From Abditibacteriaceae bacterium (GTDB taxonomy: Bacteria; Armatimonadota; Abditibacteriia; Abditibacteriales; Abditibacteriaceae), in assembly GCA_031425655.1 (NCBI GenBank), contig JANPJS010000218.1:1-14534 (forward strand): 14,534 nt of DNA, read 5' to 3'. Below the pieces are notes generated by a model. The model searched no databases and was not told the DNA's origin. It saw nothing but the letters and a program-made list of their open reading frames with translations. Each line of letters begins with the position of its first letter. The first letter of the stretch is position 1. Positions 3,501 to 7,135 of the stretch are shown piece after piece. A program made the translations under genes and the position numbers.

Positions 3501-3959
3501 ATGGATTCTGTTGATGTGAACGGCACCGGACTGCCTTTGGACGGCGCCAAATTTCCGAATTTGGCCATGCAAACCGGCTCGGTTTCCCAAAGCGAGTTTA
3601 AAATCGGCGCTTTGGAACCGACGTGGATTATCGAGGGCAGCCCCGTGGTGCGGGCACTGGCCTTAACCAATTCCGAAGACGGATTGTTTTCCTGCGGCCT
3701 GTGGGACTGCACTGCCGGCAAGTTCAAGTTCATCTTCGGCTACGATGAAATCGTCCACATCATAGAAGGCGAGGTCACGATTCAGCAGACGGATGCTGAA
3801 TATACTTTGCGTCCCGGCGACGTCGCATTTTTCCCGAAAGGCGCGACAACTTACTGGACTGTGCCTCACTACGTAAAAAAATTCTGTATCCATCGCTCTG
3901 TGCAGCGCAGTCTGGCGGGCAAGATTCACGCGCGCATAAGGCAAGTTTTGAAGCGATAA
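3501..3959 (+). CDS. Cupin domain protein (DUF861 / Cupin_3, EutQ-like)
   Basis: The GLWDCTAGKF...YDEIVHIIEGEVTI...TLRPGDVAFFPKG...WTV...VKKF signature is present. A Shine-Dalgarno AAGGAG lies at 3489-3494. Confidence 0.9.
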   Translation: MDSVDVNGTGLPLDGAKFPNLAMQTGSVSQSEFKIGALEPTWIIEGSPVVRALALTNSEDGLFSCGLWDCTAGKFKFIFGYDEIVHIIEGEVTIQQTDAEYTLRPGDVAFFPKGATTYWTVPHYVKKFCIHRSVQRSLAGKIHARIRQVLKR

Positions 3960-4088
3960 TAGGATTTCGTCTTGATTCATGCCCATCGCGGTTGTTCGCA
4001 GCCCCAAACCGGAAGCAGCGAAAAGGCCGATGGGCGCACTGAGAAAACCGTCTTCGTCCCGGTTCAAAAAGCCATTAACGCCACGCAA

Positions 4089-4167
4089 TCGCCTACAGCT
4101 TCGGCTTTCGCTCGTGCTTCGCTGCGATCTCTGCGCTTCCGGCGGCGGGTGAGCTTAGTCGTTCGGC
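4089..4167 (+). mobile_element. attC site 1 (left arm truncated or degenerate)
   Basis: The right half GGCGGCGGGTGAGCTTAGTC-GTTCGGC (R' at 4161-4167) is nearly identical to attC2. Homology to attC2 extends left to CGCCTACAGCTTCG at about 4090. No good R''/L'' is present; only a weak CATTAAC at 4073-4079. Confidence 0.8.
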
Positions 4168-4194
4168 GGCTGTGCGCAGCATTGTCGCAGGCGC

Positions 4195-4224
4195 TTGAAT
4201 TTGAAGTCTCCGTTTGCCTATACT
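4195..4224 (+). promoter_or_regulatory. Putative sigma70-type promoter inside cassette A
   Basis: TTGAAT (4195-4200), an 18-nt spacer, then TATACT (4219-4224), ending 13 nt before ATG 4238. No clear Shine-Dalgarno is present. Confidence 0.5.
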
Positions 4225-4237
4225 TGTCCGAAGTGCT

Positions 4238-5017
4238 ATGGACAACCTCGAACTCATATCCCAACTTAAAGAACAAGCAAAGGAAGTTTCTGTTCGCAAT
4301 GGCGGCGAGCTTGATGCCGTCATTCGCCGGACTGAAATGATTGTCCGCAACGTCTTTGGCCCCGCAAGCAAATACCTTACGGATATAAAAGAGCTTAGCT
4401 TCCATCCGTCGTTTGGGCCTACAACAGAAGAATACAAAATTAGTGTTTGGCATTCCGGCCATAAAGCTTTAATCAACCTTATTCAAACGATGGAAGATGA
4501 ATTGAAGCTCTTCCAGCTAACAGCGACACAAGAGGAAGGCGCAACAAACCCAACGCAAGTAGGGAACCAAATTTTCATTGTTCATGGACATGACGAGGAA
4601 ATGAAACAGTATGTCGCCAGAACACTTTCAATTCTTGATTTGGAAGCAGTGATACTGCATGAAAAGCCGAATCAAGGCAGAACAATAATTGAAAAATTTA
4701 CAGATTATTCACAGGTTTCTTTCGCCATCGTTCTATTGTCACCTGATGATGTAGCTCGGCCCCGCCATTCAAAGCCAGAGGAGGAAAAGTTCAGGTCAAG
4801 GCAAAATGTAATCTTTGAGTTGGGCTATTTTATAGGTAAATTAGGTCGTGAGCGTGTAGTGGCATTATATAGACAGGAGAAAAATTTTGAAATGCCGTCG
4901 GATTTTTCTGGAGTGTTGTTCGTGCCGTTTGATTCAAGTGGCAGATGGCAATTCGATTTGGTTAAAGAGTTAAAGTCGTGTGGATACAAAGTGGATGCAA
5001 ACAAATTGCTGTCATAG
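4238..5017 (+). CDS. TIR-domain protein of the predicted nucleotide-binding/Cap12-Pycsar type (PF10137/COG4271-like) with an uncharacterised N-terminal domain
   Basis: The C-terminal domain has IFIVHGHDE, ILHEKPNQGRTIIEKF, FAIVLLSPDD, RQNVIFELGYFIGKLGR and PSDFSGV, all hallmarks of this family. ATG 4238 (259 aa) is preferred over TTG 4214, which overlaps the putative promoter. Confidence 0.92.
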   Translation: MDNLELISQLKEQAKEVSVRNGGELDAVIRRTEMIVRNVFGPASKYLTDIKELSFHPSFGPTTEEYKISVWHSGHKALINLIQTMEDELKLFQLTATQEEGATNPTQVGNQIFIVHGHDEEMKQYVARTLSILDLEAVILHEKPNQGRTIIEKFTDYSQVSFAIVLLSPDDVARPRHSKPEEEKFRSRQNVIFELGYFIGKLGRERVVALYRQEKNFEMPSDFSGVLFVPFDSSGRWQFDLVKELKSCGYKVDANKLLS

Positions 5018-5029
5018 GCACCAACAGCC

Positions 5030-5127
5030 TCCGAACAAGGCGATGCACCCGACCGCTTACAGCTTCGCTCGTCGTTCCTCACTGTGGTCCCTGCGCTTTC
5101 GGCGGCGGGTTAGCTTAGTCGTTGGGC
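5030..5127 (+). mobile_element. attC site 2 (complete, 98 bp)
   Basis: R'' TCCGAAC (5030-5036) begins 12 nt after the TIR stop and is followed by AAGGCGATGCACCCGACCGC. This pairs with GCGGCGGGTTAGCTTAGTC, with extrahelical bases. R' GTTGGGC is at 5121-5127. Confidence 0.92.
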
Positions 5128-5187
5128 CGCTGCGTGCGGCTTTTTGGGAACTGGCAGTATCAAACGGCGTTAGAATAAAAGTTGTAA

Positions 5188-5246
5188 AAGCGTGGGGACG
5201 ACTTCGCGTTTCAATAAAATCTTTGGGACGACCCAAACATGAGGAG
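5188..5246 (+). promoter_or_regulatory. Guanidine-II (mini-ykkC) riboswitch
   Basis: Two tandem hairpins carry ACGA tetraloops closed by G-C pairs: P1 GCGTGGGG-ACGA-CTTCGCGT (5190-5209) and P2 TTTGGG-ACGA-CCCAAA (5222-5237). A 12-nt linker joins them. SD GAGGAG (5241-5246) and the ATG of an SMR exporter follow directly, which is the canonical context. Confidence 0.93.
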
Positions 5247-5253
5247 AAACATC

Positions 5254-5574
5254 ATGGCTTGGGTCGTTCTTTTTGTTGCGGGTTTGCTTGAAGTTGGTTG
5301 GGCTATCGGGTTGAAATACACGGAAGGTTTCACCAAACTTTGGCCCAGTGTCGCAACTATCGGCGCAATGGCCGTTAGTTTCTTTTTGCTTTCTCACGCT
5401 CTCAGAACTATTCCAGTTGGCACCGGCTACGCGGTGTGGACTGGCATTGGAGCCGTCGGCACAGTTATTTTGGGCATGGTGTTTTTAGGTGAGCCGCGCG
5501 ATGTTGGGCGCATCTTTTGTTTGTTGCTCATCATTGCCGGCATCGTTGGTCTCAAAGTCGTTTCGCCTCACTAA
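5254..5574 (+). CDS. sugE: Guanidinium exporter Gdx (SugE), SMR family
   Basis: 106 aa from ATG 5254, with the SD 7 nt upstream: [26 protein letters not shown]...SFFLLS...[11 protein letters not shown]. It retains G10, E13, W16, S42, F43, Y59 and W62, typical of Gdx rather than Qac/EmrE. It lies downstream of a guanidine riboswitch. Confidence 0.95.
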
Positions 5575-5602
5575 GGCAGCGGGGCGAGACGTTCCAACAC
5601 CA

Positions 5603-5682
5603 GTTCAACAAGGCGCTACATTCGACCGGCGGCACCCCATTCATTTCCCCCTCCCGGCGGCGGGTGAACTTGGTCGTTTAGG
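5603..5682 (+). mobile_element. attC site 3 (80 bp, somewhat degenerate)
   Basis: R'' GTTCAAC (5603-5609), then AAGGCGCTACATTCGACCGG...CCGGCGGCGGGTGAACTTGGTC, then G|TTTAGG (5676-5682). It belongs to the same family as attC1 and attC2. The left stem has mismatches, and the R' tail overlaps the DUF1501 stop codon. Confidence 0.82.
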
Positions 5683-7135
5683 CCAATAAAGCGCGAATGA
5701 CGGTGCCCGAAACGTCCGTCAGGCGGTAATTGCGCCCGCCGTAGTGGTAAGTCAGCTTTTCGTGGTCAATGCCCATCAGGTGCATAATCGTCGCGTGCAA
5801 ATCGTGGACGTGAACTTTATTCTCAATCGCGTGCCAGCCGTATTCATCGGTGGCGCCGTGAACCATGCCGCCTTTGACGCCGCCGCCGGCCATCCACATC
5901 GTGAAGCCGAAAGGATGATGCTCACGCCCGTCGGTGCCTTCGGCAGTGGGGGTGCGGCCAAATTCGCCGCCCCAAACCACTAAGGTGTCTTCCAACAATC
6001 CGCGCGCTTTGAGGTCTTTGAGCAAACCGGCGATGGGCAAATCCGTCGCGGCGCAGTTGGCCGGCAACTCGGCTTTCAGGCCGCCGTGCTGATCCCACAA
6101 TTGGCAGCTTGAGCGTTTGGAAGTTTCGGTATGATAAACCTGCACGAAACGCACGCCGCGCTCGACTAAGCGCCGCGCCATCAAGCATTGGCGGCCAAAA
6201 GTTTCAGTCACTTTTTCATCCAAGCCGTAAAGTTTGCGTGTTTCGGGGCTTTCCTTATCTACATCGAAGGCGTCCGGCGCTTCGCGCTGCATCCGAAACG
6301 CCAACTCAAAAGAGGAAATGCGCGCGTTGAGTTGGCTGTCTTCGCCGCGTTGCTGCTCGTGCAACTGGTTCAGTTGCCGCAGCGCATCTAATTGCTCACG
6401 CTGGCGCTGCGCCGACATATTCGCATTTTTAAGATTGGCAATCGGATTCTTCAGATTATTGACAAGCGTGCCCTGATAAGCCGCCGGCAGAAAACTGGAA
6501 CTCCACAACGGCGCGCCCTGCGCCGGTTGCGCCGGGCTGATGACGATGAAACCGGGCAAATCCTGATTTTCGCTGCCCAAACCGTAAGTCAGCCACGAAC
6601 CCATGCTGGGCCGCGAAAACGCTTGTTCGCCGGTATTCATCTGCAAACAAGCGCCGTTGTGATTGATGTTATCGGCCACCATCGAGCGGATAACGCACAA
6701 ATCGTCCACGCAACCGGCGACGTGCGGAAACAATTCGCTGACATCAATTCCCGCTTGCCCGTATTTCTTAAAACTCCAGGGCGAGCCGAGCAAATTGCCG
6801 GTTTTAGTGCGTTCCAAATGCGGTTTATTAAAGGGCAACGGCTGACCGTTTTGCGCCAGCAAACGCGGTTTCGGATCGAAAGTATCAACGTGCGACGGCC
6901 CGCCCGACATGAACAAAAATATCACGCGTTTGGCTCGCGCCAGATGCATTGGCGCTTTAACCGACAACGGGCCGGCAGCTTCTACTTTTTTGGCAAGCGC
7001 AGGCGCCGCACGCGATTCATCGGCCAGCAGCGAGGCCAAACCGAGCATTCCAAAGCCGTTGGCGCAGGTTCGCAGCATTTCGCGCCGCGTGATTGGCGCG
7101 GGGCCGGCGTTGTGGCGCGGATCGTTGTGTTTCAT
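5678..7135 (-). CDS. DUF1501 domain protein (sulfatase/alkaline-phosphatase-fold related) with a Tat-like signal
   Basis: 485 aa. Motifs: TRREML twin-arginine motif, AKRVIFLFMSGGPSHVDTFDPKP, RRLVERGVRFVQV, WDQH, GEFGRTP, GREHHP and VHVHDLHATIMHLMGIDHEKLTY. Confidence 0.95.
   Translation of the reverse strand: MKHNDPRHNAGPAPITRREMLRTCANGFGMLGLASLLADESRAAPALAKKVEAAGPLSVKAPMHLARAKRVIFLFMSGGPSHVDTFDPKPRLLAQNGQPLPFNKPHLERTKTGNLLGSPWSFKKYGQAGIDVSELFPHVAGCVDDLCVIRSMVADNINHNGACLQMNTGEQAFSRPSMGSWLTYGLGSENQDLPGFIVISPAQPAQGAPLWSSSFLPAAYQGTLVNNLKNPIANLKNANMSAQRQREQLDALRQLNQLHEQQRGEDSQLNARISSFELAFRMQREAPDAFDVDKESPETRKLYGLDEKVTETFGRQCLMARRLVERGVRFVQVYHTETSKRSSCQLWDQHGGLKAELPANCAATDLPIAGLLKDLKARGLLEDTLVVWGGEFGRTPTAEGTDGREHHPFGFTMWMAGGGVKGGMVHGATDEYGWHAIENKVHVHDLHATIMHLMGIDHEKLTYHYGGRNYRLTDVSGTVIRALLA

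Follow-up and report, generated by a model that had tools for sequence, protein, structure and literature searches.

A stand-alone PF10137 TIR gene in an integron cassette: a catalogued family with tested relatives and a head that may act as a plug-in phage sensor

What does a single gene that joins a TIR domain to a helical N-terminal domain do inside an integron cassette, and does it constitute a new anti-phage system? The gene lies in a window of 14,534 nucleotides (the whole stretch of DNA analysed here) from an Abditibacteriaceae bacterium. A preliminary description had read it as a candidate one-gene abortive-infection system, whose N-terminal domain might sense a phage component directly or drive oligomerisation.

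The cassette and its gene

The cassette had been placed at 4162 to 5121, and these limits coincide exactly with the G/TT crossover points (4161/4162 and 5121/5122). Two repeat copies form its borders at a spacing of 960 bp, and its one ORF is closed by an attC site with paired core and inner arms (Table 1). The upstream attC was missed by the hairpin detector; matches to other attC copies begin at 4082. The left core of the cassette's own attC (5030-5036) is complementary to the cassette-start core (4161-4167) at six of seven positions and to the downstream core at five of seven, which fits insertion of the cassette as a circle. The repeats on either side are members of an attC family that has 60 matches on 29 contigs of this genome and is present in 18 of 24 genomes of the same bacterial family. 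An integron integrase is encoded on contig C103 (TIGR02249, 428 bits, cut-off 265), where more attC sites adjoin it; neither an integrase nor a Pc promoter was found on the cassette's own contig. One joint was seen in the contigs, within the repeats. At the level of homologous loci, an attC-like hairpin stands 3' of the gene in 8 of 228 cases, compared with 7 among 2280 random windows. Cassette capture is therefore recurrent, though confined to a minority of loci.

Table 1. Features of the two cassettes, with positions in the window
Feature	Position	Strand	Details
Upstream attC	4082..4167	+	nhmmer 68 bits; 5' end decayed; remnant of previous cassette
Integron gene cassette 1	4162..5121	+	960 bp; carries the head-TIR gene
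Promoter-like site in cassette 1	4195..4224	+	13 nt before ATG; 9/12 consensus matches
259-aa head-linker-TIR gene	4238..5017	+	ATG 4238, stop 5017; PADLOC PDC-S35 family
Four-helix head, residues 1-93	4238..4516	+	pLDDT 94.6 for head alone
Flexible linker, about residues 94-110	4517..4567	+	pLDDT <50 at 94-106
PF10137 TIR, CAP12/Pycsar clade	4568..5014	+	predicted catalytic E194 at 4817-4819
Cassette 1 own attC	5030..5127	+	complete; nhmmer 89 bits; two mismatches in inner arms
Cassette 2, independent neighbour	5122..5676	+	guanidine-II riboswitch, SugE/Gdx-type SMR transporter and short attC
Guanidine-II riboswitch, cassette 2	5190-5236	+	Rfam RF01068, 35.8 bits
SugE/Gdx-type SMR transporter, cassette 2	5239-5574	+	NF008512, 135 bits, cut-off 126
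Short attC, cassette 2	5603-5682	+	

The surroundings offer some observations in their own right. Cassette 2 is a riboswitch-regulated gene packaged as an integron cassette. The attC family is dispersed over many small arrays and single sites (for example C211 9057-15268, C100, C103 and C243), far from the genome's single integrase on C103. Positions 27-256 of the window hold nested long inverted repeats (52 nt at 92% and 31 nt at 94%), possibly a small mobile repeat; a related sequence seems to be joined to halves of attC sites at other places in the genome, and in reads too.

The AT-rich character ascribed to the ORF is evident in its GC content of 42.3% against 55.2% for the window, and in a GC3 of 41.5% against 61-70% in four non-cassette genes. 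The putative promoter described earlier does exist as a site, but such sites occur at chance level (three in 3950-5700 against 1.9 +/- 1.3 in shuffles). The predicted layout of a helical domain of about 90 residues, a polar linker and a PF10137-like TIR was borne out by the AlphaFold2 full-length model (mean pLDDT 87.3, pTM 0.58), which displays four head helices, a disordered linker and a TIR domain. The TIR matches PF10137 with E 2.4e-36 (124.8 bits, cut-off 24.7), and its nearest solved relatives, by sequence and by fold, are TIR-STING proteins. Its retained glutamate, E194, aligns with the same-motif glutamate in TIR-STING chains and is invariant in 88 aligned homologues; by motif, it is present in 119 of 120. 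The glutamate of this motif is the catalytic residue in TIR NADases.

The head is harder to place. It has no Pfam or NCBIfam match (residues 1-100 in the Pfam scan), and fold searches with it return generic bundle matches only. It carries no conserved polar catalytic set; conservation is structural and hydrophobic, and the loop between helices 3 and 4 is hydrophobic and highly variable.

A catalogued family with tested relatives

The gene matches the PADLOC model PDLC05005 (PDC-S35) with E 5.9e-79, residues 5-256 aligning to 6-262 of 264 model positions. The match spans the head as well as the TIR, and 30 of 31 heads are covered by this model; the domain called unknown is thus nameless in Pfam but contained in an existing PADLOC model. 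The novelty proposed for the system is lost with this assignment. The PDCs are 145 candidates published as untested and defined by their location inside loci of other defence systems (Payne et al., bioRxiv 10.1101/2024.01.29.577857); S35 is absent from the main text of that preprint.

Two single-protein systems of E. coli, TIR-V and TIR-IX, bring the family closer to experiment. In the available parts of the study that describes them (Wang et al. 2024, PMC11350192), both are triggered by phage portals, and their C-termini are superimposable while their N-termini differ. The model files of that paper allowed us to relate them to our loci. TIR-V has 291 aa; compared in three places with the 291-aa ORF of locus L232, it agreed at each of the 47 residues checked. 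The best PADLOC model for L232 is again PDLC05005 (6.9e-67), the same as for the cassette gene, and its TIR is 41% identical to that of the cassette protein over 148 residues, BLASTP aligning the TIR only. TIR-IX has the same pre-glutamate and C-terminal motifs as this TIR clade; its head is a different, strand-containing one, similar to that at locus L218. TIR-V thus shares the TIR clade of the cassette gene, as does TIR-IX, judged by motif. Since L232/TIR-V falls on PDLC05005 and is portal-triggered, PDC-S35 has tested members. We found no statement to this effect in the literature searched, where PMC11350192 was the one paper on TIR-V and portals; in its available parts, a systematic TIR study (10.64898/2025.12.03.692087) dropped stand-alone TIRs from its analysis. 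We conclude that the cassette gene is intact, that its family is already catalogued and that relatives of it have been tested; it is not a new system.

The protein search yielded 4312 matches among 4670 candidates, with homologues in bacteria, archaea, plasmids and viral contigs. The same head is present in 30 of 80 genome loci. For these 30 head+TIR loci, the 110 nearest neighbours were scanned against PADLOC, and 81 of them against NCBIfam. A defence gene lies no more than two genes away in 11 loci and is missing from the other 19, a raw count with no background control. At 4 of the 11 (L029, L035, L056 and L058, around 8000), the gene sits between a methyltransferase and a BPTD_3080-type restriction endonuclease. 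No conserved partner gene was found among the 110 neighbours and the gene is alone in its cassette, which together indicate a single gene that needs no partner. A search of 40 relatives did not recover the head, which makes the gene accessory.

Taken with the intact frame and glutamate and the strong conservation of the family, the defence neighbours argue against a cassette that is silent or devoid of an anti-phage role, whether stranded or serving stress-linked NAD+ metabolism. The decayed flanking sites, the contig without an integrase and the chance-level promoter would suit such a cassette, as would the published screen in which 20 of the 32 TIR candidates from E. coli conferred no defence (PMC11350192, available parts). 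On balance we regard this reading as quite improbable, and an anti-phage role for the gene as likely.

Several further loci of the clade deserve mention. Contig C45 of this genome (about 25100-26000, minus strand) carries a second PF10137-like stand-alone TIR, 37% identical, whose head is different and longer and which has no attC close by. Two TIR genes of the clade with different heads stand in tandem at L015 (6465-8456) and L180 (2814-4687), as if they were stacked sensors. Hundreds of plasmids from Klebsiella and Escherichia bear a TIR of the clade with another head (48% identity); its sole annotation is nucleotide-binding protein. In protein P0181, a methyltransferase-like piece is fused ahead of the head.

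Could the protein instead be one half of a signalling system completed in trans, as effector for a cyclase encoded elsewhere or as a TIR signalling to a distant effector? The clade includes the Cap12 and PycTIR effectors, and SpbK, a TIR protein of the Bacillus subtilis element ICEBs1, makes N1-cADPR (PMC12847820, available parts). A class III cyclase with a weak PycC match (2e-18) is located directly upstream of the closest genome homologue (L003, 1536-2480); its position may be due to chance or may reflect a Pycsar-like pairing. Yet a cyclase neighbour occurs in only one of the 30 head+TIR loci, and the cassette protein has no nucleotide-binding domain. As described before, no cyclase, STING, cNMP or SAVED partner is present among the nine window proteins scanned. 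The genome, 97% complete, contains no SMODS match and only weak generic cyclase matches, and TIR-V, like TIR-IX, works alone (PMC11350192, available parts). Completion in trans is accordingly the least probable of the readings considered here, and very unlikely. One-gene abortive infection with a sensing head, as proposed in the preliminary description, stays the best reading, a predicted one, given that tested single-gene members of the clade exist in TIR-V and TIR-IX.

The head as a mobile module

A profile of the head matched 1803 cluster representatives. Among the best 150 of these, 62 carry a PF10137-like TIR (some of them partial), 44 are short or fragments and 44 bear other tails. Ten of the last group were dropped by eye (short tails or probable frameshifted TIRs), and 34 were scanned; 19 of the 34 passed a Pfam cut-off as non-PF10137 fusions. 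Their tails are TIR_2 (6), DpnII-MboI nuclease (5), Ymh (3), EAD7/EAD11 (2), AbiJ_NTD4 (1), phosphorylase (1) and tail collar (1), and one further fusion among the 34 matches PDC-S05. The Ymh tail we take to be HEPN-like, with which PADLOC HEPN matches agree. Two or three heads in tandem are present in 9 of the best 150. This fusion pattern is in keeping with a binding module that governs whatever effector it is attached to, and the head is probably a sensor.

One type of fusion leads back to SpbK. From 120 matches to one fusion of the head to an SpbK-type TIR, 57 near-full-length proteins were aligned, and in these the head occupies the position of the four-helix portal-binding head of SpbK. 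SpbK itself combines a 94-aa head of this kind with a linker and a TIR (PMC12847820), and achieves one-gene abortive infection through portal-driven clustering of its TIRs, which depletes NAD+ (PMC11984713, PMC12847820), as far as the available parts of these papers describe. As a separate observation, each of 9 genomes of one Bacilli genus (L086-L088, L090-L095) encodes a 265-aa protein with an SpbK-type TIR at its N-terminus, which suggests a gene that is fixed, perhaps domesticated.

Is the head also related to that of TIR-V, for which no head domain is recognised in the available text of PMC11350192? Comparison of the head with the TIR-V-type head by hhalign gave 45.7% with 31 sequences, 66-70% with 64 and 93.8% with 90 non-redundant ones, the last with E 1.7e-7; this alignment covered 90 columns and ran colinearly through the four helices. 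A score of 28.4 compares to 18.6 for the reversed control and to at most 16.3 in 40 block shuffles. Seven other head clusters were compared as well: two bridge both families and five score no higher than 5.2% against the cassette head. Iteration from the TIR-V head included 3 of 364 cassette-head-family members in round one (best E 3.9e-5) and the cassette protein by round three, with none of 9573 decoys. The reverse iteration, started from the cassette head, picked up a single one of the 26 TIR-V-type heads, and this was not L232. The subfamily of heads fused to SpbK-type TIRs scores 2.7% against the TIR-V head, and the L232 head alone matched no PADLOC model. Identity between cassette-type heads and the TIR-V head is about 11-12%. 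From these profile comparisons we consider the two heads probable distant homologues. The best bridge to the TIR-V head profile, P0218, is a protein with the head, a membrane segment and a phage tail-collar domain.

We found no description of the head family in the literature searched, with subscription journals largely outside it. The head may thus represent an undescribed family of plug-in sensors, and this may be a more interesting point than the gene itself. A bolder proposal would have it found a superfamily of plug-in portal sensors. The TIR-V head would belong to this superfamily, which would arm six or more effector kinds (two TIR families, a DpnII-MboI-type nuclease, the Ymh HEPN-like domain, a nucleoside phosphorylase and a PDC-S05-type domain) as well as EAD adaptors, and heads in tandem would bind the portal ring with higher avidity. 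We consider this possible, if rather doubtful. If true, one sensor fold would define a broad class of one-gene defences, and the variable head loop would set phage range.

A tentative trigger and comparison with known systems

We hypothesize that several copies of the head would dock on a phage assembly protein that forms a ring, the portal being the likeliest one. The docked heads would cluster the tethered TIR domains, as in SpbK, and thereby switch on their predicted NADase activity. Depletion of NAD+ would then stall or kill the infected cell, resulting in abortive infection. By analogy with the tested systems, the portal as trigger, SpbK-like clustering and NAD+ depletion form the most likely account, although the full chain, in which the head performs portal-type sensing, the TIRs cluster and NAD+ is lost, is put forward tentatively, at a little short of an even chance. 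It speaks against this account that TIR-V fails to protect against T7 or T4, whose portals do trigger it (PMC11350192, available parts).

The same one-gene design of sensor and NADase could operate with a head that binds a capsid protein, a tail part, terminase or a replication protein instead. The low identity to the TIR-V head and the variability of the helix 3-4 loop would be in line with divergent targets, and so would the history of the heads. The TIR clade bears several head types; its tree of 203 tips shows 57 label changes, where shuffling gives at least 93, which we read as frequent swapping of heads along the TIR tree. Moreover, single-gene TIR-VI responds to a tail fibre (PMC11350192, available parts). 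On the other side, both tested members placed in the TIR clade, and SpbK as well, respond to portals. A trigger other than the portal is hence rather unlikely, though it weighs more than the remaining alternatives.

A more radical alternative is that the head is no phage receptor at all, and rather restrains the TIR or binds a host guard, with triggering through the TIR region or through removal of the restraint. In the available parts of PMC11350192, the T4 portal triggers TIR-V as well as TIR-IX despite their different heads. A Dictyostelium TIR of the clade self-assembles and becomes toxic once its N-terminal tether is removed (PMC13142454, available parts). Both observations favour this alternative. 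Unlike a TIR-specific inhibitor, however, the head is fused to many unrelated effectors, and the model, with its pTM of 0.58 and disordered linker, has no fixed head-TIR contact. We judge this alternative improbable and retain portal sensing by the head as the preferred reading.

If the head binds portals, more than 1000 sequence clusters would gain a predicted trigger, and sensor swaps would provide simple single-gene tests of the recognition of phage assembly proteins. For specialists, the link between PDC-S35 and TIR-V and the head as a mobile module on many effector types should be of use.

Among known systems, Cap12 of CBASS and PycTIR of Pycsar share the PF10137 TIR fold and motif with the cassette protein. 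They differ in that the cassette protein has no STING or cNMP domain and no adjacent cyclase; the NCBIfam Cap12 model gives it 42.5 bits against a cut-off of 450. PDC-S35 matches over the full length, and its homologues are embedded in restriction-modification loci, the property by which PDCs are defined, but the name lumps several head types.

SpbK resembles the cassette protein in its layout of four-helix head, linker and C-terminal TIR, and the cassette-type head is also found on SpbK-type TIRs. In contrast, the SpbK TIR is of the TIR_2 type and that of the cassette is PF10137. The PADLOC spbK model matches neither the cassette protein at E up to 1 nor anything in the genome. Three head profiles gave no sequence match to the SpbK head of PDB 9phb, with a ragged alignment; the head is unresolved in the SpbK structure, according to the available parts of PMC12847820. 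The layout is shared, but no sequence link between the two heads was detected; at most, then, the cassette protein acts in the manner of SpbK, and it does not belong to that system.

TIR-IX is likewise a single gene with the same TIR motifs, and is portal-triggered, but has its strand-containing head in place of the four-helix head of the cassette protein. TIR-V differs in a longer head, only ~12% identical to the cassette head, and in a TIR domain far away on the tree (distance 2.0). It shares with the cassette protein the single-gene design, a stand-alone TIR of the clade with the conserved glutamate, and the best PADLOC model. Portal triggering is an experimental result for TIR-V, and by analogy with it would extend to the cassette gene.
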